DNA of 64,000 nucleotides from Nitrosopumilus sp. (GCA_965203315.1 OZ241857.1:1312001-1376000), one strand, 5' to 3'; counted from the stretch's first letter, positions 14,212-27,515 are shown. Program-made: numbers and translations. Notes: generated by a model not told the origin, from the sequence alone.

Positions 14212-15118
14212 GGCGATTGCTCATTTCGAGCCCCTAAGCATGTATTGTACCAATAAATCAAACAGATCGCATTCTCGGTTATTGTATCGCCACTCCATCT
14301 CCTTGAGATACAGTAAGAATTTCTTTGAACTCACACCTCGATACTTTGCCAAGTTCAATTTAGCAAAGCCCCAGAACCCTTCCATTCCATTGATGTGAAC
14401 ATCGCCTTTTGCGAAGCTCTTTTGATGATTAACTGATTCTCGATCATATCCATGAAAGATCAAGGTGTCATACCCTTTCCACTTGTCCGTGTATATCATG
14501 CTGCCCTTCTTTACTTTCTTGATCGTTGATTCAAGCAGAGTTTTAGCTGTGACGTCTGGTACAATGTCAACACGTACCTTGCCACCTCTCTGCAATATGC
14601 CAAAAACGATAGTCTTATTTCCGGCGCCGCGGCCTCGTTTTCCTTTACGTTTACCCCCAAAATACGACTCATCTGCTTCGATTTTGCCCTTTAATGTTCG
14701 ATATTCGTCATTTAGTTGCATTAGAATCACGCTCCTGAAAATATCAAAAGCTTTGAGTGCCGTATTGTAAGACAATCTTGCTTGTTTTGCAGCAACTCTT
14801 GCAGATACAGCTAGTTCAAACAATTTGACAAGTACCAGCCATTTTGAATATGAGATTTTGAGTGACGAAAATCTGGATTTGTTAAACGGTCTGAAATCTT
14901 TTTTGCATAATTTACAACGTAACCGATCTCTGTTTTTCATGTAATGGTATTGATCGCACTGACAAAATTTACAAACGATCTTGTCTGAACTATGAGATTC
15001 CAAATATTTCATTATTGCATACCCATCATTTCTCATCTCAAGAAGAGATATCAAATCCATCAAGACTTGCGTCTAAATTTAGTCATATTTAGTTAGGGGC
15101 TCGAAATGAGCAATCGCC
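14212..15118 (-). mobile_element. IS1595-family insertion sequence (907 bp)
   Basis: Perfect 26-bp TIR GGCGATTGCTCATTTCGAGCCCCTAA; imperfect flanking repeat TAATCTT/TAATCTG. Confidence 0.93.
14221..15063 (-). CDS. IS1595-family DDE transposase
   Basis: N-terminal CxxC..CxxC; EADESYFGG, TD.W.GY, VNH, HINGMEGFW, YL.EMEWRYN. Confidence 0.95.
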   Translation of the reverse strand: MMDLISLLEMRNDGYAIMKYLESHSSDKIVCKFCQCDQYHYMKNRDRLRCKLCKKDFRPFNKSRFSSLKISYSKWLVLVKLFELAVSARVAAKQARLSYNTALKAFDIFRSVILMQLNDEYRTLKGKIEADESYFGGKRKGKRGRGAGNKTIVFGILQRGGKVRVDIVPDVTAKTLLESTIKKVKKGSMIYTDKWKGYDTLIFHGYDRESVNHQKSFAKGDVHINGMEGFWGFAKLNLAKYRGVSSKKFLLYLKEMEWRYNNRECDLFDLLVQYMLRGSK

Positions 15119-15333: not shown

Positions 15334-16331
15334 TGTCTTAGACGGAAATCATTTCATATATAAACTCGAAATAAAACCATTGGTAAAGGATGCTGAATGA
15401 AAAACAAATAGCGTATATAATTAGAGAAATGCGTAAAGGCACAAGCTCATCCATCATAGCAGAGAGAATGAAGGTAACTCCCAGACGTGTGTATCAAATT
15501 TATGAATATTATATTCAGACAGGTTCAGTTCCAAAACAGCTCAATGCAGGAAGACCAAAGATAGAACCAACACCAAAACAGATTCAAATTGTAACTGCAG
15601 CATACAATGATGATCCTCGAGGTGCTATTTTTATTGCAAAACATCTGCGCTCTGCCCGCATACAAATAAGCTACAACACTGTAAAGAAGATCATGAAAGC
15701 AAAAGGTTTAGCATCTCCAGCATCTACAAACCGAACGCGTCACAAATGGATTCGCTTTGAACGAAAGTACTCTAACGCAATGTGGCATGTAGACTGGCAT
15801 GTCATAAAAGACTCCAGATGGCAAAATCTATACCTAATTTGCTACCTAGATGATGCATCCAGATGTATTACGGGCTTTGGAGTCTTTCAACATCCCACAA
15901 CAGAGAATGCACTACTTGTATTAGACAAAGCAATTAAGACGTTTGGAAGACCTGCACAGATACTATCTGATCATGGCCCCCAGTTTACATCTAACAAAGA
16001 ACCAAAGAAAGGTAAAAAGAAACCTACGCACTTTGAAAGAGCTTTACAAAAGCGTAAAATTACTCACATACTTGCAGGAGTGGGTCGTCCACAAACCAAT
16101 GGTAAGATAGAGAGATTCTTTGGAACATTTGAAAATGAGGTTGAACATCATGCCAGAATTGATGAATACATTAGTCATTACAATGAAAAAAGACCACACT
16201 TTGCTCTAGATATCGATAACGGAGAAACACCGCTTATTGCTTTTAGAGCAAAACAAGCTAGTGCTGAGATTAGAAAAAACCCAAAATGGGCAGATCTTGA
16301 CTTATATATGAAATGATTTCCGTCTAAGACA
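15334..16331 (+). mobile_element. Intact IS481-like element (998 bp), 16-bp TSD
   Basis: Perfect 30-bp TIR TGTCTTAGACGGAAATCATTTCATATATAA; TSD CATAGAACACAAGATC at 15318-15333 and 16332-16347. Confidence 0.95.
15390..16316 (+). CDS. IS481-family transposase (HTH + rve integrase core)
   Basis: WHVD, LDDASR, LSDHG.QF, PQTNGKIERF, YN..RPH. Confidence 0.95.
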   Translation: MLNEKQIAYIIREMRKGTSSSIIAERMKVTPRRVYQIYEYYIQTGSVPKQLNAGRPKIEPTPKQIQIVTAAYNDDPRGAIFIAKHLRSARIQISYNTVKKIMKAKGLASPASTNRTRHKWIRFERKYSNAMWHVDWHVIKDSRWQNLYLICYLDDASRCITGFGVFQHPTTENALLVLDKAIKTFGRPAQILSDHGPQFTSNKEPKKGKKKPTHFERALQKRKITHILAGVGRPQTNGKIERFFGTFENEVEHHARIDEYISHYNEKRPHFALDIDNGETPLIAFRAKQASAEIRKNPKWADLDLYMK

Positions 16332-16381
16332 CATAGAACACAAGATCACAATTGTTTTATAATATGTTATAGTTCGGCGTA

Positions 16382-19300
16382 TTGTTGTATAAGAAAAATC
16401 ATACGTTGGTTCTTGTACTTGCATTATTTGTAATTGTACCTAGTATAGTCTTTGCTCAAAATACAGATAATCTAGAATCGTCTGTTGTACCTGATATTGA
16501 ACCCACCGATAATACAATTGGTCCTGTTGCAAATGTTGGTGTCGAGTACAAGTTCGATGATGGTTTTTACCAAAAAATTCAGGATCTGAGCAAAGAGACT
16601 CCTCAAGAAGGCGATCCCGGTGTATATGACGGTACCAGATACTATAGTGTAATACTAGTTGTGAATCGAGACGATGGTGACGATAGAACAGGTGACGAGA
16701 CCGCGAAGGAGAACAAAGGTGCTCTTGTAAAGCGACTGGAACTATTAGGAGCTCGAGATATCCTTGCAGCAGAGTCTCTCTCTTTTGTAACTGCTTCTAT
16801 ACCTGTAGGAGAAGTTCCTGGCTTTTCGTTACATGATGAGGTATTTCAGTTAGGTGATGGTGAACTACCCATATTTCCTGCTGTGGATATTGCTAGAAGA
16901 ACGATCAATGCCATGCCTGAAGATCTATCTAGAATAAATAATCAAAATCTTACTGGTAGCGGTATAGTCGTTGCGGTTGTAGATACAGGAATAAACAGCA
17001 TATATCTAAATGATAAAGTTCGTGAGAGGATATATTGTCCAGACAGAACTTGTTGGGCAGAAAATGGTTTGATCATGGGACAATCTACCCTTGAACTCGG
17101 TTTACTGAATACCACAGATTCTACACATGGTACACGCGTTGCGCAAGTACTTGCAGCTTCTGGAATGTCAAATCACAATGGAATTGCGCCAGGGGTCACA
17201 TTGTTGGACGCAATGTATGGTAGTCAATCTTTAATTGGGAACGTTGTTTTCCACAATCCAGACAGTACTTTCTATGTCCATGCAATTGACTGGGCGTATA
17301 AACAAGGTGCAAACATATCAAATCTTAGTGCAGGTTACGATATATGTGACAACTTTTTTGATATTGTTTCGTACAACTTGATTGTGAATGAAGCAGTAGA
17401 TAAAGGAATGATAGTTGTCAAATCAGCAGGAAATCGAGGTTTTAATAATACTGCACAAACCGCATCTTATAATTCTATAACTAATCCAGGATGCGCAAAT
17501 AACGTAATTACCGTGGGAGGCATCGATGATCGTTCTTCTAGCGAAAAAGAAATGTATACTAATTCAAGCCGAGGACCATCAACCGACAACACTCCCGTAT
17601 TGAAACCAGAGATAGTTGCTCCCGCTTATATGATTCAAACACTTAATAACACTCTAAATGATGATGCCGGTCCTCGTTCGGGTACAAGCTATGCAACACC
17701 TCAAGTAAGTGCAGCAGCTGCATTGATGTTAGAAGCAGAGCCAAGCCTTACTCCGATAGAAGCAAAGGCACTGTTATTACTAGGGGCAAACTGGCAGGGT
17801 CCAATTCCGTGCACATCTACTCAATACGAACGAAACAATCCAACTAACGATTGCTCTTTTGCAAGGCAGCCAGCAGATCCAGATACAGCTAATAATGCTG
17901 ATTCACTAAGCATACTAAACAATGTTGGATTTGGCATACTCGATGTAGGACAATCAGTCGTATATTCATCACGTGCTCTATCTCATGTTATGTCAGATCA
18001 TCTTGATCCTCTGGGCATAACATCCAAGGGATATACATTTACAGTAACCAATACATCAGAGCCTGTAAAGATAATTCTTACGTGGCTTGTACATCCACAT
18101 GGCGGCATATTGGAACAGGATAATCGTAACACTGCTGCTCCAGTAGCTGATCTAAACTTTACAGTAAGATGTAATGGCGGTCAAACTATCTCTGCCACAT
18201 CATCACATCAAACAAACGAGTTTGTAGTGTTTAGACCTTCACAAACTGGAACTTGTACTATAACTGTTACGGGCTCTGGACTAGATACCATAAACAAACC
18301 TGTACAAAACTATGCTCTTGCAAGTACACGTCCACTAACTACCGTACTGCCATCCAACAACTTACCGAGTGCAACATCTGATTCTTTTATCGTCAGTCCA
18401 GGAATGCCATCCACAGTATACTTTACTGGACGAGATGCTAACGGTGATTCCATATCGTTTAGTGTAACACGCGATCCAACTCAAGGCATAATAACCACGG
18501 ATGAGTTTATCACAAAGACTCACTCCCGAGCAATGTACACGCCATATGACAACTTTACAGGAAGAGACACATTTCAGATTACGCCATCTGATGGTGTAAA
18601 TCAACGAGGTATTCCTGCAACCATAACTCTGATAGAAGAGACACTGCCTCCAAACTCACAAAAGGCTACTACAAGATCTGACAATGTACGTGATTGGGAC
18701 ACTAGCATATTTTCCTCAAACACGCCATTGACTACATCTAGTAAGACATTTACCGGCCCAACATATCCAGTATCTGCAATTCATATAGGCTCTGTAAATG
18801 TGGAGGGCGGACTTGCCACATTTACAACATCAGATGGCAACACATATCGAGCTGTTGTACCGCCGAGTGGTGCCAGAATGATAGAGTTTCCATCATCCAT
18901 AATGATTAGAACGATGGAACTTGCTTCAGAGTGGATAGATGAGGAATCAATACACAACACAACGAAAAACATACCTACCGACATTCGAATCTTTGCAGGA
19001 TATGTACCTAGTTCATGTGTATCACTATCTGGATCAAGCGGTGCCAACTCTTGTCCTGCACATACGACACACTTGTTTAGTTCATCTCCAAATCTTGCAA
19101 TTCCAGACAACGCAGACAATCAAGACACAACTGACACTATTCGCATATCTGAGAATGGCACAATAAGAAAGATTACTGTATCTCTGGATATAACTCACAC
19201 ATTCATTGGTGATCTCAAAGTTATACTTACACCACCTAGTGGCAAACCCATAACGTTACATGATCGAACAGGCGGAAATCAAGATGACCTCAAGAGATCA

Positions 19301-21151
19301 TATACGTCAGAGATATCTTCTCTCATCGGTACCCATCTTGCAGGCGATTGGGTCTTGTCAGTCGGTGATTATGCAGGTAGCGATGTAGGACGAATAAATT
19401 CGTGGTCTATAAGTACAGAGTCTGCTTTCACAGATGCTCCTGTTACGTCGCCAACCGTCCCATCTACGCCTAGACCCACAAACACAACAATATTCTCTGA
19501 CAACTTTGAGTTATCCCTCTCTGACAAGTGGACCGAATCTGGCGAGAGTGATTGGAGAATTACAACACCCAGCGCTCACTATGTTCCAAATGTACCTGGT
19601 TCATCTCCAACAAACAAGATATTACATGCCGACAATTGTGATACTGGTTGTACATTAACACTAACCAATTCAATAGACCTATCTGGATACACCTCAGCAA
19701 CACTCTCTTTTTGGCGATTTGTTGATTCGTCTCTAGATGATGATGAATATCTCAAAGTTGAACTGTACAACGGCAGAACATGGAATACGATATATCATTG
19801 GTCAGATAACTTGGATAATGATGATGGTCGATGGAATTTAGAGTCATACAATTTACAATCGTATCTGGTATCAAACTTTAAGATGAGACTGGTAACTCAA
19901 CAGAGTTCTACCACTGAAGACGTACAGATAGACGATATCAAGATAACTAGTGGTTCTACAACCACATCTAGACCGACTGTACCATCTACAACTCAATACT
20001 CGATATATGTGGCAGATACAGACGATGACGAGATTGCCGTATTCTCTTCTGCCGGTACATTTGTTGGCAATATCATTCCTCGAGGATCAGGGGATCTAGA
20101 TTATCCAACCGATCTAGTATTTGACACAAATGGAAACATCTATGTCTCTGATTTCATAAACAACAAGATTCGCAAGTATTCCAGTACTGGATCAGTACTA
20201 GACAAAACCTGGGCTACAACTGTAGGATCTCCGCACGGGATGACATGGAATGGAGACACACTATACGTTGCAACGGCACGTGGTGTGGAGCGATTTTCAC
20301 TGTCTGGTTCTTCTCTAGGATTATTTGGTGATGCTGTTCAAGGAACTAACCCATCACATACGAATAAACTATCCACACCGAGCGATGTAATATTCTGCAA
20401 CAACAAAATGTATGTTGCAGATAGTGGTTGGGGTAAAATATTCTACTATTCTACTTCTGGTTCTCTGTTAGGTACAATCTCACCGGGTACAAATAATCCA
20501 AACACCCAACATTCTAGGGGACTAGAGTGTGGTCCAGCAATAATCGGTAGTGGCACTAGTCTATATCAGAGTGGTGGTGATGCTGGAAGAGTAAATGAGA
20601 TAAACTATCGTACAAATTCCTTGATACGCGAGTTTACATCAGATGTTGATGAGCCACATCGTATGGATATGGATAGTCTAGGTAATCTCTATGTCGCAAA
20701 CAAGGACGATGATAATATAATAATGATCAACCAAACAGGTGTAACAGAGGTTGCAGATTATAGACTTGATGATCCACGCGGTGTACAGATAGGGCCTGTA
20801 TACAGATCAATATCCGGTTCTTCTGGACAGGACATACCCGATAATGATCAACCCGAGTTTGACGTATTATTGCAAAACGGTACACGTGCTAGTACACCAC
20901 TGTTCATGACATCAAACAGCTCTATCACATTATACGTGAACGCAACTGACCCACAAGACGATCCAATTACAATTGGTATCATACCTGAACTTATACCAGA
21001 ATCTAGTTTATTATTCATAGATAACAAGAATGGCACAGCTAGTGTTACTATAGACACCATAGATTTGGATGCTGGTAACTATCTGTTCTGGATTAAAGTA
21101 TCTGATGATACAGAGTTTGATCAGTCGCCATTTCTAGTGAGTGTTCAATGA
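16382..21151 (+). CDS. Secreted multidomain S8 (subtilisin-like) serine protease
   Basis: Signal peptide; catalytic VVDTG, HGTRVA, SAGN, GTSYATP; then Ig/cadherin-like domain, proprotein-convertase P-domain (ITHTFIGDL...GDW.L.V.D), S/T/P linkers, beta-sandwich, NHL-type propeller (YVAD/YVSD repeats), C-terminal cadherin-like domain. Confidence 0.93.
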   Translation: MLYKKNHTLVLVLALFVIVPSIVFAQNTDNLESSVVPDIEPTDNTIGPVANVGVEYKFDDGFYQKIQDLSKETPQEGDPGVYDGTRYYSVILVVNRDDGDDRTGDETAKENKGALVKRLELLGARDILAAESLSFVTASIPVGEVPGFSLHDEVFQLGDGELPIFPAVDIARRTINAMPEDLSRINNQNLTGSGIVVAVVDTGINSIYLNDKVRERIYCPDRTCWAENGLIMGQSTLELGLLNTTDSTHGTRVAQVLAASGMSNHNGIAPGVTLLDAMYGSQSLIGNVVFHNPDSTFYVHAIDWAYKQGANISNLSAGYDICDNFFDIVSYNLIVNEAVDKGMIVVKSAGNRGFNNTAQTASYNSITNPGCANNVITVGGIDDRSSSEKEMYTNSSRGPSTDNTPVLKPEIVAPAYMIQTLNNTLNDDAGPRSGTSYATPQVSAAAALMLEAEPSLTPIEAKALLLLGANWQGPIPCTSTQYERNNPTNDCSFARQPADPDTANNADSLSILNNVGFGILDVGQSVVYSSRALSHVMSDHLDPLGITSKGYTFTVTNTSEPVKIILTWLVHPHGGILEQDNRNTAAPVADLNFTVRCNGGQTISATSSHQTNEFVVFRPSQTGTCTITVTGSGLDTINKPVQNYALASTRPLTTVLPSNNLPSATSDSFIVSPGMPSTVYFTGRDANGDSISFSVTRDPTQGIITTDEFITKTHSRAMYTPYDNFTGRDTFQITPSDGVNQRGIPATITLIEETLPPNSQKATTRSDNVRDWDTSIFSSNTPLTTSSKTFTGPTYPVSAIHIGSVNVEGGLATFTTSDGNTYRAVVPPSGARMIEFPSSIMIRTMELASEWIDEESIHNTTKNIPTDIRIFAGYVPSSCVSLSGSSGANSCPAHTTHLFSSSPNLAIPDNADNQDTTDTIRISENGTIRKITVSLDITHTFIGDLKVILTPPSGKPITLHDRTGGNQDDLKRSYTSEISSLIGTHLAGDWVLSVGDYAGSDVGRINSWSISTESAFTDAPVTSPTVPSTPRPTNTTIFSDNFELSLSDKWTESGESDWRITTPSAHYVPNVPGSSPTNKILHADNCDTGCTLTLTNSIDLSGYTSATLSFWRFVDSSLDDDEYLKVELYNGRTWNTIYHWSDNLDNDDGRWNLESYNLQSYLVSNFKMRLVTQQSSTTEDVQIDDIKITSGSTTTSRPTVPSTTQYSIYVADTDDDEIAVFSSAGTFVGNIIPRGSGDLDYPTDLVFDTNGNIYVSDFINNKIRKYSSTGSVLDKTWATTVGSPHGMTWNGDTLYVATARGVERFSLSGSSLGLFGDAVQGTNPSHTNKLSTPSDVIFCNNKMYVADSGWGKIFYYSTSGSLLGTISPGTNNPNTQHSRGLECGPAIIGSGTSLYQSGGDAGRVNEINYRTNSLIREFTSDVDEPHRMDMDSLGNLYVANKDDDNIIMINQTGVTEVADYRLDDPRGVQIGPVYRSISGSSGQDIPDNDQPEFDVLLQNGTRASTPLFMTSNSSITLYVNATDPQDDPITIGIIPELIPESSLLFIDNKNGTASVTIDTIDLDAGNYLFWIKVSDDTEFDQSPFLVSVQ

Positions 21152-22488
21152 ACAGACTGATTATAATAGCATCCATCATAATCGGTGTATCATCTCTTGT
21201 GGGCATATTGTACGTTACAAACCCCGATATGTGGATACAGATTATAGATCGATCAAACTATGAGCCCAAAGATATTGTATCCATAAACAACGAGTTTGCC
21301 ATAAACTTTTACAAAACCATCTATGACGATCCCAAATACCAAGACAAAAACATCCTTTTCTCGCCGACTAGCTTGATTACGGCATTTTCTATACTGTATG
21401 AGGGGGTAGATGGCGATGCTGCAAAACAGATAGAAAAGGTATTTGGATTTAATCCAGATGCTCAAACTAGACACGAATCGCTAAAAAAGTTATGGTCAAT
21501 TGTAAACAACGACACGAAGCATATGGGAGTTGTCTCTTATAAAGAGTGTTGTGATAAGGACAAACATGGATATTATCATACTAACACAATACAAGTTCAT
21601 GAGAAATGGACAGACATCAATATAATCAACAGTATGTGGATTACAAGGAATGGCAGTTTCACTGATAAATACATCAACAAAATTCAAAACACATTCAAAA
21701 ATCAGGTGAAAATAATTGAGCATTTTAATCACAAAGACATAGATGAAATGAATGAATGGATCAGTACAAACACAAGAGAAAAAATAACGGATGTTTTTTC
21801 ATTGGGCGACTTTAAAAATTCATCTTCGTTACTAGCGAGTAATGCGTATTTTAAATCAGCTTGGGAGTTGCAATTTGAACCACGTTATTTAGAAAAAACT
21901 GTTTTTTGGGCGAGCAGCAAAGAAGTAATAGCAGAAGGGATGATACAGCCTGCATGGAGTGGTTACAAATATGCATATTATGATAACGTACAAGTATTAA
22001 ACATACCATACAAGCAAAAACATCTCTCGATGACAATAATACTACCAAATGATCGAAACGGCATAAAAGAGATAGAAGAGATAATATCTGTAAAGCAAAT
22101 TGAGGAATGGCAAAGTAGTTTAGAACAGACATTCCTGTACGTAGAAGTACCAAAATTCGAGATAAATTATAACTATGATTTCTCTGAGATATTTGAGCAA
22201 TTGGAAATAAAAGATGTATTTAGATCAAAGAATAACCTTCCGGATACAGCAATTCCAGATTCAATTGAAAAAGCATACATCGACAAGTTGTATCATCCAG
22301 TGTATTTCTTATTTGATCAGATGGGTACAGATACAAGATATAGACAACCTACAGTAATATTAGATGATATAGCGTATATGCCAAATCTATACTTTTATGC
22401 TAAACATCCATTCATATTCTTTGTACAAGATAATGACACTGGGCTGATACTATTCATGGGCAAGATAGTCGATCCAACTTTGGACTGA
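21148..22488 (+). CDS. Serpin-family protein with N-terminal membrane anchor
   Basis: NILFSP.S, N.W....T...I, N.YFK..W...F, LSM.I.LP, PKF, HPF.F......LILFMGKI.DP; ATGA overlap with protease stop. Confidence 0.93.
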   Translation: MNRLIIIASIIIGVSSLVGILYVTNPDMWIQIIDRSNYEPKDIVSINNEFAINFYKTIYDDPKYQDKNILFSPTSLITAFSILYEGVDGDAAKQIEKVFGFNPDAQTRHESLKKLWSIVNNDTKHMGVVSYKECCDKDKHGYYHTNTIQVHEKWTDINIINSMWITRNGSFTDKYINKIQNTFKNQVKIIEHFNHKDIDEMNEWISTNTREKITDVFSLGDFKNSSSLLASNAYFKSAWELQFEPRYLEKTVFWASSKEVIAEGMIQPAWSGYKYAYYDNVQVLNIPYKQKHLSMTIILPNDRNGIKEIEEIISVKQIEEWQSSLEQTFLYVEVPKFEINYNYDFSEIFEQLEIKDVFRSKNNLPDTAIPDSIEKAYIDKLYHPVYFLFDQMGTDTRYRQPTVILDDIAYMPNLYFYAKHPFIFFVQDNDTGLILFMGKIVDPTLD

Positions 22489-22563: not shown

Positions 22564-23665
22564 TGTGGGATCCGGAAAGTAGTTCGCCCCTCGTTTGATG
22601 TGGTATTCTTTTACGAGTCATCGATTTCTACTCCTTTTGGTGGTTGTTTGTTGATAAACGCTTTGTATGGTGCCTCTCTGACGTCAATATTGAGAGACGT
22701 GTGAATGCGTTCATAGTTGTACCATTTCATTGTATTTACTACAAACATGTCTACCGGATCACTTGTTCGTTGCATGTATCCTGCAAATACCGGATATTTG
22801 TGTTCTACCTCCCCAAACAGTCGTTCTACTTTGCCGTTGATCTGTGGATGATTTACGCGTCAGAGAATGTGCTGTATTCCTAGTTCTGCTAATCTCGCCT
22901 CAAACTTGGATATTCCTTTCTTCTTGTTTTCAGCTGCATTGGCGTAAAACTGCGTTCCATGATCTGTAAGAATTGCTTTTGGTTTTCCATAATTTTTGAT
23001 GGCCTCATCCAACACTGCAAGCGCATTCTCTGCTGCTGCGTGGTCAAATGTATCACATCCGACCACAAATCTAGACGCAACGTCCAGATAAGCGATTAAC
23101 CATCTACCATCAGGCAGTTGTTTCCAGTCTACATGCCATAGAGTTGGAATGTTTACGCTCATATCGCACAAATTTGCGTTGATGTTTGCGTTGTTTTTTG
23201 GTTAGACTCTCATCTCGTAGGATCTTTTGTATCATGTATCGTGGAACGCTTATTCCAAGATACTCTACTAGATCACGTTTGAGATTTGCAGCTCCTTGAC
23301 CTGTTAAAGCACGTAGCGTCATTACTGTAGAGTGTTCTAGCCTACCTACTAGACTCTTCTTGGGCCTACTCATGGGTTTTGGGTATACCATCTGATTTGG
23401 TTCTACATTCTTGTATCTGGCAAACAATTTTTGAATCCAACGAACCGATATGCCCATCTGTTCTGCAATTATTGCATTCTTGGTTCCTTTGCTCTTTTCT
23501 CGTACAATGTATTGTACTTTTTGTTGATCTAATTTACTCACTCTTCGAATTCGCTTCTTGCATACATATTTCCACCTCTCATCATAACTACGTACATGCT
23601 TTCGACGGGGCTTGGAACCTGCACCTACACTCTTGATTGAGGGGTGAACTACTTTCCGGATCTTA
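22564..23665 (-). pseudogene. IS481-family element with frameshifted/nonsense transposase
   Basis: ORFs 23110..23541 and 22860..23171 join across a 2-bp deletion, then an in-frame TGA; IRs GATCCGGAAAGTAGTTCGCCCCTC (22569-22592) and GAGGGGTGAACTACTTTCCGGATC (23639-23662), 23/24 match. Confidence 0.9.
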
Positions 23666-26081: not shown

Positions 26082-27515
26082 ATGAATAGACTATTTATCA
26101 TATTGATCTTTGGCATCATCATATCTGGGACTCTATCTGTTTCAACAGCTGATCAAATTAGTGATTCTACAAAATTTCATTTCACTCAAACTATCTCATC
26201 CTCACAAGATCTAGGACAGGGATACGAAGAGTATCAGATGGCACTAGTGTTGTCCCCAAATACGACAACCATCTACGACGGCTCTATGACATTTATCTCA
26301 AACAGTCCTGTAACTCCTATCGTATTCCACGAGATAGCAAGCGATGAAATTATAGATCAATCGGTTTGGACTGTTGACGGTAAATCATTCTTTGTTATAT
26401 CAGAGCTTGGTGCACCCAAGACTTCGGCTAGTTTCGAGTTTACTGGAGCTGCATTGGGTCTACGAGCCGAATCAGAATTTTCTGCAACATTAAGTACCAG
26501 TGGATCGATTCATGGTCAACCGGTCGATCTTGTTATACCGCGATTAGATGATAAAGAGATATCGTTACATTTGTCTAGAACCAACATTCCTGTCACGATC
26601 CCAATGCACAAAGGACTGTACAATGGTAGCAACATGTCTTTTATTATTACAGACAGTAGTGATGCCGAGTATGCTAAAATAATCTCTGAGATAAAAGATT
26701 GGCAAGTACAACATGCACCACCATTGAGAGACGCTCCTAACAGCACACTACAAAAACTCTTTGTCTTTAAAAATGGAATCAAAGGGAGTGGTCTATTTGG
26801 TTATCAACCTAATATTCTCTCGTCTATACCATCGGCGTCAAACTATAGTGCCCTCGTATCTGTGATTGAAGTATCTTGGAAGACTGGCCAACGTCCTATG
26901 AAACTTGATACCATATCTAGTATTATGACTACAGCTGATAGTAATCGGATCAAACTCAATGATACTGGTATAGTGCTCAATGCACCTCAAATAACTTGGC
27001 CTGGCGGTCAAATGATGGTTCGCTCTAATGATACAATAACTGATGAAACAGCATATAGTGGCCAGATAGTCGAAATAAATCATGTTGCTATGAACGTTAC
27101 GTTTGTTGCTCATCGAGGATGGGGACCTGATGGTCGAACTGTATACTGCATAGTAACTGATGCCACACCAAAAGGACCTGCAGAGACGATGGGTACTATT
27201 GTATCGCCGACATCTGTAAATTTGATCGCGAGTCCGGTAGCAGCTGATCTATTCCAGTTCAAAAACGGTATCATTGGATCTGGTCCATTAGGATTTCAAC
27301 CATCTATTGCATCTGCAGCGCCTGGTGATGAAGATTATACTCCTATGTGGCGTGTCTACCTAGTGGAATGGAAGGATCCAAAGACTGCCAAAGTCTTAGA
27401 GACGACAACAGACATTGATCACTTTAGATCATCAGAGATGTTGTCAGTTAGTATTGCCAGACCTACAAATCTCAGCTATATTCTCAACTGTCCAATCATT
27501 GATCCATTCCAATAA
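26082..27515 (+). CDS. Secreted hypothetical protein with two internal repeat domains
   Basis: Signal peptide; repeated F.NGI.GSG..G.QP.I.S..P...YS/YTP motif. Confidence 0.7.
   Translation: MNRLFIILIFGIIISGTLSVSTADQISDSTKFHFTQTISSSQDLGQGYEEYQMALVLSPNTTTIYDGSMTFISNSPVTPIVFHEIASDEIIDQSVWTVDGKSFFVISELGAPKTSASFEFTGAALGLRAESEFSATLSTSGSIHGQPVDLVIPRLDDKEISLHLSRTNIPVTIPMHKGLYNGSNMSFIITDSSDAEYAKIISEIKDWQVQHAPPLRDAPNSTLQKLFVFKNGIKGSGLFGYQPNILSSIPSASNYSALVSVIEVSWKTGQRPMKLDTISSIMTTADSNRIKLNDTGIVLNAPQITWPGGQMMVRSNDTITDETAYSGQIVEINHVAMNVTFVAHRGWGPDGRTVYCIVTDATPKGPAETMGTIVSPTSVNLIASPVAADLFQFKNGIIGSGPLGFQPSIASAAPGDEDYTPMWRVYLVEWKDPKTAKVLETTTDIDHFRSSEMLSVSIARPTNLSYILNCPIIDPFQ

Follow-up and report, generated by a model that had tools for sequence, protein, structure and literature searches.

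The stretch of DNA analysed here, which we call the window, comprises 64,000 nucleotides (nt) from Nitrosopumilus sp. (GCA_965203315.1 OZ241857.1:1312001-1376000), and our subject is a pair of overlapping genes within it that encode a protease of peptidase family S8 (a subtilase) and a serpin (Table 1). We refer to the window pair as locus A (S8_A and serpin A), to its genome as G000 and to the paralogous loci in that genome as B to E. G000 measures 2.47 Mb in 7 contigs and encodes AmoA, placing the pair in an AmoA-bearing Nitrosopumilaceae archaeon. A first-pass annotation of the window had described the two genes as a cognate effector/regulator pair, coupled through an ATGA in which the protease stop overlaps the serpin start; the open reading frames (ORFs) and this overlap lie exactly where it had placed them.

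The upstream gene encodes a multidomain subtilase. About 45 nt of sequence are conserved ahead of S8_A, S8_B and a mini-ORF that precedes serpin E, and the TTTTATAAT box found there may be an archaeal TATA box. A single hydrophobic segment (residues 5–29), followed by VFA/QNT, opens the protein. Residues 27–190, a putative propeptide for which the I9 type was considered, gave no Pfam match even at E ≤ 1 and are strongly conserved across 12 S8 homologues. In the alignment of these 12 sequences, the catalytic residues D201, H249 and S436 and the oxyanion-hole N351 fall in conserved columns; H249, N351 and S436 are invariant in 12/12, and D201 is kept in 11/12, with Asn in the exception, L046. 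The S8 domain, with Asp, His and Ser in this order and the oxyanion Asn, identifies the protein as a subtilase. It does not have the kexin/furin-type (S8B) arrangement, in which the P-domain directly follows the catalytic domain: here, the P-domain begins about 450 residues past the end of the Pfam S8 match (480) and about 270 past the end of the conserved subtilase region (around 655), and an immunoglobulin (Ig)-like domain intervenes. The MAM-like domain recurs in other proteins upstream of serpins, and the homologues at L052 and L053 are called InhA-like_MAM and MAM. Pfam recognizes one NHL repeat (residues 1239–1266, E 2.7e-7). The AlphaFold2 model of residues 1190–1589 (mean predicted local distance difference test (pLDDT) score of 85.5) contains a 24-strand, six-bladed propeller followed by an eight-strand sandwich, for which Foldseek returned NHL domains (TMt 0.68–0.72) and the archaeal S-layer propeller+PKD tandem 1l0q (E 1.9e-15). 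NCBIfam profiles gave sub-threshold matches only. The earlier description of a 1589-residue protease with an intact D/H/S triad, a P-domain, an Ig-like domain and an NHL propeller was thus borne out by Pfam, alignment and AlphaFold2.

The downstream gene encodes a member of the serpin superfamily. Its PF00079 match (residues 47–443, E 1.2e-73) covers positions 3–370 of the 370-position profile, it retains every one of the 21 columns that are invariant in the serpin alignment, and 82 serpin sequences from the PDB match at E ≤ 1e-20, among them conserpin (E 6e-39) and antithrombin (E 2.5e-36). AlphaFold2 models it with a pLDDT of 79 and a predicted template modelling score (pTM) of 0.79. Residues 1–25 form the only hydrophobic segment, modelled as a helix at residues 2–24, with no obvious cleavage motif; serpins B and C, P0004 and P0006 likewise open with MNRL/MKR and a hydrophobic N terminus. 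Since each of the two proteins has one N-terminal hydrophobic segment, export of both is plausible, as the first-pass annotation held, and the window serpin would keep a membrane anchor. An insertion shared with paralogue E has low pLDDT at residues 126–135 and 144–152 and forms an unaligned gap against the PDB serpins.

Table 1. Features of the protease–serpin locus, followed by flanking genes (positions counted from the first nucleotide of the window)
Feature	Position	Strand	Basis
Promoter-like segment with TTTTATAAT at 16355-16363, ~23 nt 5' of the TTG start	16336..16381	+	
S8 subtilase gene, 1589 aa, TTG start	16382..21151	+	ORF, Pfam, alignment
Signal-peptide-like segment, residues 1-25, ...VFA/QNT	16382..16456	+	Sole hydrophobic segment in S8
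Peptidase_S8 catalytic domain, residues 192-480	16955..17821	+	Pfam, E 7.5e-39
Big_9/cadherin-like Ig domain, residues 659-742	18356..18607	+	Pfam, E 8e-5
Proprotein-convertase P-domain (P_proprotein), residues 929-1011	19166..19414	+	Pfam, E 3.6e-16
MAM-like domain, residues ~1031-1189	19472..19948	+	Pfam MAM, E 0.0013, below curated cut-off
Six-bladed NHL-type beta-propeller, residues ~1207-1471	20000..20794	+	AlphaFold2, Foldseek, Pfam NHL
C-terminal Ig/PKD-like sandwich, residues ~1492-1588	20855..21145	+	AlphaFold2, Foldseek
ATGA, serpin start overlapping S8 stop (caATGAac)	21148..21151	+	
Serpin gene, 446 aa, ATG start	21148..22488	+	ORF, Pfam, AlphaFold2
N-terminal hydrophobic helix, residues 1-25, signal anchor or uncleaved signal	21148..21222	+	Hydrophobicity, AlphaFold2
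~30-aa insertion specific to the A/E serpin type, residues ~120-152, contains CC	21505..21603	+	
Reactive-centre-loop region, residues 391-414; hinge P17-P9 at 22318-22344	22318..22389	+	
IS1595-family transposase gene (flank)	14221..15063	-	Pfam DDE_Tnp_IS1595, E 7e-36
rve integrase-core transposase gene, ends 65 nt before the S8 start	15390..16316	+	Pfam rve, E 3e-16
HTH_23 ORF on the other side of the pair	23110-23541		

We examined the pairing across 201 Nitrosopumilaceae genomes, 49 of which, from 15 of 27 genera, carry serpins (85 rows, reduced to 80 unique full-length ORFs, with partial matches of fewer than 250 aligned residues excluded); the view that serpins are rare therefore fails within this family. 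Seventeen of the 80 have an S8 3' end terminating at, or no more than 62 nt from, their start, and at an eighteenth (L050) an S8 gene split into two ORFs lies 113 nt upstream. These 18 S8-linked serpins come from 8 genomes in 5 genera (g1, g2, g7, g14 and g16): 8 stand behind a full-length S8 gene, 8 behind nothing more than a remnant, and contig ends truncate the other 2. None of our claims depends on the unpublished genomes G077 and G092. A start/stop overlap (ATGA, GTGA, TTGA or ATGAATAA) is present at 13 junctions printed from family genomes, and a further Nitrosopumilus record holds two more S8–serpin pairs with GTGA overlaps. The co-occurrence check called for by the first-pass annotation thus recovered a conserved pairing, and the named records that match the subtilase tail are Nitrosopumilus or Nitrosopumilaceae.

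The pair has the adjacency of a cognate protease–inhibitor operon; it lacks the mutual dependence in which neither partner is kept alone. The 8 serpins that keep only an S8 remnant, together with S8 homologues that have no serpin (L055, L098 and five other large S8 genes of G000), contradict the strict dependence implied by the earlier analogy with toxin–immunity pairs. Because the whole 1589-residue protease, used as a query, gave only two scored candidates per genome, S8 homologues are undercounted by that search, and we examined the serpin loci one by one. The Peptidase_S8 domain was absent from all 63 scanned upstream ORFs or N-terminal extensions of family serpins, and three serpins sit behind proteins that share only the MAM-like domain with S8. 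We conclude that the S8–serpin arrangement is a conserved module and not an obligate pair.

At most of the printed junctions, the conserved ...V.V.. tail of the subtilase encodes a purine-rich motif resembling GGTG(ATC), GTGAG or GAGGTG, 8–14 nt ahead of the serpin start. This motif resembles a Shine–Dalgarno site and may be one. At L046/L043 (G089:C2:2364000-2376000), a second S8 copy has its catalytic Asp replaced by Asn, and its tail is split from the body by a minus-strand ORF of 446 residues; the 88-residue tail remnant still overlaps the serpin start. In L096, a named Nitrosopumilus record, the frame overlapping the S8 stop encodes an anchor-like peptide (LRKKILIAAVATII...) from a CTG start, with no serpin ORF after it and the next S8 gene about 600 nt downstream; the first codons may be all that remains of a serpin here.

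Serpins of 500–900 residues in other Nitrosopumilaceae genera carry N-terminal fusions: six NHL repeats (L021, L022, L027 and L093), a periplasmic solute-binding domain (Peripla_BP_6/ANF_receptor; L076, L077, L079 and L082), DUF6438 (L023 and L025) or a Kunitz domain (L028). We know of no description of such architectures. We considered whether the NHL–serpin fusions might serve as a 'Rosetta stone', pointing to a contact of the S8 tail with the serpin, and rejected the idea: their propellers are mostly 22–32% identical to the S8 propeller, a generic NHL likeness, with segments of 69 and 31 residues reaching 41% and 48%.

In G000, which has five full serpins and eight S8 genes, all five serpins follow an S8 gene, which is full-length in two cases and cut down to a remnant by deletion in three. 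The second full pair, S8_B and serpin B (G000 C1:218681-224679), overlaps by 4 nt, as does each of the three remnant ORFs with its serpin. The remnant before serpin C is a 143-residue copy of the S8 C terminus (94–97% identical) and that before serpin D a 56-residue C-terminal piece. The 103-residue mini-ORF before serpin E (G000:C1:396007-397793, minus strand, GTGA overlap) joins S8 residues 1–48 (81% identity), which include the signal peptide, in frame to residues ~1513–1589 (40% identity) and retains the TTTTATAAT box and TTG start of S8_A and S8_B. It is a subtilase gene that has lost its interior and has probably been retained as the serpin's leader. Before other 'orphan' serpins, the remnants span 26 to 143 codons of the S8 3' end.

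The piece kept before both serpin D and serpin E is the last ~55 S8 codons, about two thirds of the terminal Ig-like domain. The two 55-codon remnants differ by 9.5 synonymous and 4.5 non-synonymous changes (ratio of non-synonymous to synonymous differences per site (pN/pS) of 0.14; binomial P of at least 9 synonymous among 14 changes, ~9e-4), and a full-length donor of this remnant type was not found in G000 (tblastn, 5 hits only). The tail has been under purifying selection at the amino-acid level after the deletion. A serpin 'island' at G000:C1:218681-244000 contains S8_B with serpin B, the 143-residue remnant with serpin C and a C-terminal serpin fragment (243322-243414).

The copies in G000 also differ in age along their length. 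S8_A and S8_B are 84% identical overall, and serpins A and B 34%; serpin A is 75% identical to serpin E. Within the subtilases, residues 200–600 are the most diverged part (49–72% amino-acid identity, with synonymous substitutions per site (dS) of 0.8–1.4), whereas residues 800–1589 are 96–100% identical (dS 0.07–0.16). At loci A, B and C, the last 500–700 nt of the S8 gene are 90–100% identical in DNA, and identity falls at the ATGA. As the scaffold is near-identical and the serpins and catalytic domains are diverged, the latter have different, older histories than the homogenized scaffold. Read from the aligned copies, this mosaic is the signature of cassette exchange.

The first-pass annotation had proposed separate origins for serpin and protease on the ground that the serpin gene is more AT-rich and poorer in CTAG. 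The compositional difference is real (GC 0.342 and 3 CTAG in the serpin gene; 0.411 and 28 in the S8 gene), and we rejected it as a sign of foreign origin. GC at third codon positions is reversed (0.349 in the serpin, 0.293 in S8), and the gap sits in the first and second codon positions; among genome windows of the same size, about 10% are equally AT-rich or CTAG-poor; and the low GC and scarcity of CTAG reflect amino-acid make-up, the protease being rich in G/A/P/S/T and the serpin in K/I/F/Y/N. Separate histories stand instead on the divergence between loci, 84% for the subtilases against 34% for the serpins.

We then considered whether the window serpin has the reactive-loop hinge of an inhibitor. 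Its hinge at P17–P9 reads QMGTDTRYR, followed by QP, which places Pro at P7; that of paralogue E reads RMGTDTRPR, and the core GTDTR.R is common to both. In a published account (PMC2770083), the inhibitory consensus at P17–P9 is given as E[EKR]G[TS]x[AGS]4, the flexible hinge is described as absent from non-inhibitory proteins of serpin fold, and one hinge substitution is said to be able to abolish inhibition. The window hinge fits 2 of the 8 constrained positions of this consensus, P15 G and P14 T, and the inhibition earlier proposed for this copy does not sit with it. Strict regular expressions for the consensus proved too narrow (27 of 80 serpins fail, mostly at P16), and we replaced them by residue counting, asking for at least 3 small residues at P12–P9 and no charged residue, aromatic residue or Pro at P14 or P12–P8. 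By this rule, 69 of the 80 family serpins pass, with a typical hinge of E[EK]GTEAAA[AV]T, and the window serpin has 0 of 4 small residues at P12–P9, carrying R, Y and R. The loop is exposed and flexible in the model (pLDDT below 50 at residues 397–407) and, in a HMMER alignment to conserpin, three residues longer. The hinge DNA is covered by contigs from two sequencing runs, one of which may be the source sample, with 0 differences over 21984–22437.

Deviant hinges are not confined to the A/E type. Serpin B, the other fully paired serpin of G000, has GIQASEDSA (the hinges of serpins C and D are near the consensus), and the S8-paired serpins L049 and L050 have bad hinges and look degraded, L049 having lost its start and anchor and L050 having a split S8 gene. 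In a quick tree (SH-aLRT support only, midpoint root), the stem of the A/E clade measures 2.47 substitutions per site against a median tip of 0.18, and a search of 5.8 billion clusters returned no relative more than 37% identical outside G000. Compared with paralogue E, the window serpin has a ratio of non-synonymous to synonymous substitution rates (dN/dS) of 0.37 over its whole length and 0.32 in its body, and the serpin body is under purifying selection. Given a non-consensus hinge, a long branch and no close relative, yet a selected body, the window serpin is probably not a classical suicide inhibitor.

The reading that we favour, with a probability of about 0.45, is that the window pair is a copy of a conserved module whose serpin has turned from a loop-inserting inhibitor into a loop-dependent binder or substrate-like modulator. 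The module would comprise a giant secreted subtilase and, downstream, an exported serpin that is probably anchored in the membrane. In the subtilase, a signal peptide and a conserved N-terminal pro-region precede the S8 catalytic domain, and a long surface-type scaffold follows, in which a P-domain, a MAM-like domain and the NHL propeller stand in this order between two Ig-like domains. The serpin apparently lacks a promoter of its own; it would then be made from the protease transcript, initiated at the subtilase promoter, by re-initiating ribosomes that have finished the upstream frame, so that the two genes would be co-transcribed and translationally coupled. In most members, the serpin has the textbook inhibitory hinge and would most likely hold in check, at the envelope, subtilases that the cell itself secretes. 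In G000, the module was duplicated and reshuffled, leaving near-identical scaffold halves with different catalytic domains and serpins. The window serpin belongs to the fast-evolving A/E clade, found only in G000, and with Arg-Tyr-Arg and proline where small residues are required it would no longer act as a classical irreversible inhibitor; more likely, it is selected as a loop-dependent binder or substrate-like modulator of one or more subtilases at the cell surface. The cognate effector/regulator pair of the first-pass annotation thus survives as a conserved unit of parts with different histories, without the GC/CTAG argument, strict dependence or inhibition by the window copy.

Several observations weigh against this reading. 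ATGA overlaps are common in prokaryotes generally, and only the conservation of the window overlap carries weight. Most family serpins (62/80) are not linked to S8, and those behind a remnant clearly function without an adjacent protease. Hinges are canonical in the S8-paired serpins of G177, G089, G080 and G061 and in L094 and L095, making the non-canonical state peculiar to G000 and not a property of the module. The hinge rule is empirical, and the window serpin retains Gly at P15 and Thr at P14. The loop outpaces the body in evolution, as expected if it still meets a protease, with a pN/pS of about 2 against paralogue E (24 codons only, a small sample with no significance figure). The test for selection on the remnants draws on 14 differences and assumes that the deletion preceded the D/E duplication, an order backed by the shared breakpoint only. 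Weakly in favour of the reading, a complex prediction of S8 residues 168–655 with serpin residues 35–446 (three runs, three controls) scored 0.35 (runs 0.34, 0.58 and 0.35; best control 0.00), with agreement in at least 57% of contacts between runs and partner pLDDT of at least 74. Of 157 solved complexes, 116 reach the mark that it passes, as do 2 of 215 mismatched pairs; scores that reach it at 0.60 or below come from only 18 of the 157 solved complexes and from both passing mismatches. As serpin–protease complexes have already been solved, the model may pass here by reproducing known structures, and the result hints only slightly at a physical interaction between S8 and serpin.

If the window serpin were instead the classical partner, trapping the subtilase encoded upstream irreversibly and made in fixed proportion to it as a device of self-protection or immunity, then the conserved adjacency and overlap, the fast-evolving loop and the predicted complex, weak and possibly remembered as it is, would fall into place, as would the fact that paralogous pairs differ exactly in catalytic domain and serpin, on a scaffold 96–100% identical, which looks like matched specificity. 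This is also the kind of regulation proposed for sponge ammonia oxidizers (PMC6790972). However, a hinge that matches 2 of 8 constrained positions, with Pro at P7 and a loop three residues longer than that of conserpin-AAT, is a poor fit to trapping; serpins have outlived deletion of the protease 8 times, and serpin-less subtilases exist. We therefore hold a classical pair to be decidedly unlikely. The non-consensus hinge, very long branch and deviant composition could also be those of a former inhibitor drifting without a present role, in a locus flanked by insertion sequence (IS) genes and with two other bad-hinge, S8-paired serpins (L049 and L050) in visible decay. Against such drift stand an intact frame of 446 residues, all 21 invariant columns, a body dN/dS of 0.32, a confident fold model and a derived hinge core shared by both paralogues, and we consider it highly improbable.

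A target outside the cell accounts for different parts of the evidence. Serpins may act on proteases of hosts, prey or neighbours, with the subtilase operon serving only co-expression, as 'attack plus shield'. The five paralogous serpins of G000 have very different loops, serpins are kept after protease loss, the loop of the window copy has a pN/pS near 2, and serpins of other genera, away from any subtilase gene, carry NHL propellers, solute-binding domains, DUF6438 or a Kunitz domain as fusions; host proteases have been suggested as targets (PMC6790972 and PMC7848895). Such a target leaves unexplained why the last S8 codons and the overlap are kept and selected, and the window hinge argues against the trapping of any protease. 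We regard a foreign target as rather unlikely for the window pair. Equally doubtful, in our judgement, is a more radical form of the modular reading, in which the unit of inheritance and function is not protease plus inhibitor but the last ~55 subtilase codons, the overlapping start and the serpin. If true, the S8 tail would be either a small exported peptide that partners the serpin by docking or tethering, or a leader that must be translated for the serpin to be made. The A/E serpins, with their Arg-Tyr-Arg/Pro hinges, would then be a neofunctionalized, non-inhibitory archaeal lineage in which the loop serves to bind the subtilase and not to trap it.

The pairing itself has been described before. 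Moeller et al. 2019 (PMC6790972, Fig. 4B) show co-localized S08A subtilases and I4 serpins in sponge-associated ammonia-oxidizing archaea and suggest, as a role for the serpins, control of the proteases that the archaeon itself secretes and/or of those of the host. Haber et al. 2021 (PMC7848895) list how many serpin copies are present and propose that serpins protect against digestion by the host. The sponge-archaeon pairs share with the window the same two families, the same archaeal group and the same regulatory hypothesis, and since their co-localization is published, the core pairing is not new: the window pair is a further, atypical example of it. The main text of PMC6790972 makes no mention of hinge, reactive, overlap or co-transcription. 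Beyond that main text, our analysis adds the overlapping stop and start, the S8 remnants before 'orphan' serpins, mosaic exchange and a non-consensus hinge. A literature search on serpins in Nitrosopumilus and its relatives found only these two papers, and one for a prokaryotic serpin–subtilisin operon found nothing beyond them. What thus appears to be new is that the overlap is conserved, that the S8-tail remnants are under selection, that the loci have undergone mosaic exchange and that the window serpin departs from the hinge consensus.

With inhibitory serpins (MEROPS I4; alpha-1-antitrypsin, antithrombin and conserpin), the window serpin shares the fold and all conserved core columns; it differs from them in its deviant hinge, Pro at P7, a loop longer by about 3 residues, the ~30-residue insertion (120–152) and an N-terminal membrane helix. 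The serpins of Thermococcus, Pyrobaculum and Clostridium thermocellum inhibit subtilisin-like proteases and have consensus hinges; to our knowledge, they have not been described as overlapping a protease gene. Non-inhibitory proteins of serpin fold, such as the eukaryotic ovalbumin, PEDF, maspin and HSP47, lack, like the window serpin, the run of small hinge residues and keep the fold. We know of no non-inhibitory prokaryotic serpin coupled to a protease gene, and our literature search found none. According to PMC2770083, non-inhibitory serpins arise from inhibitors after duplication, and 42% of Drosophila serpins are of this kind.

The window pair is bracketed by mobile-element genes (Table 1), and IS genes also lie beside the serpins in L070, L072 and L091. 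Further along, downstream of PCNA and aspartokinase genes, an ORF of 477 residues (26082-27515) carries DUF7482 (E 2e-93). Contigs from four DNA runs (X1, X2, X5 and X7) show that more than one DNA run contains the stretch, and no RNA run is listed for it; the repeated 3' end of the S8 gene interrupts the assemblies, and none of the pieces listed spans 21124–21332.

Few gene sets separate host-associated from free-living ammonia-oxidizing archaea; secreted subtilases and serpins are among them and have been proposed as a basis of mixotrophy and host interaction. Our analysis shows that the serpins, joined to the subtilase 3' end, move as a module, which has been repeatedly reshuffled, and that some paired serpins have abandoned the inhibitory hinge yet remain under selection. 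This corrects the assumption that an archaeal serpin beside a protease is always its inhibitor. The gain lies in mechanism and evolution, not in discovery of the pair, and it offers testable handles on serpin function in these archaea: which serpins, which protease domains and which leader.

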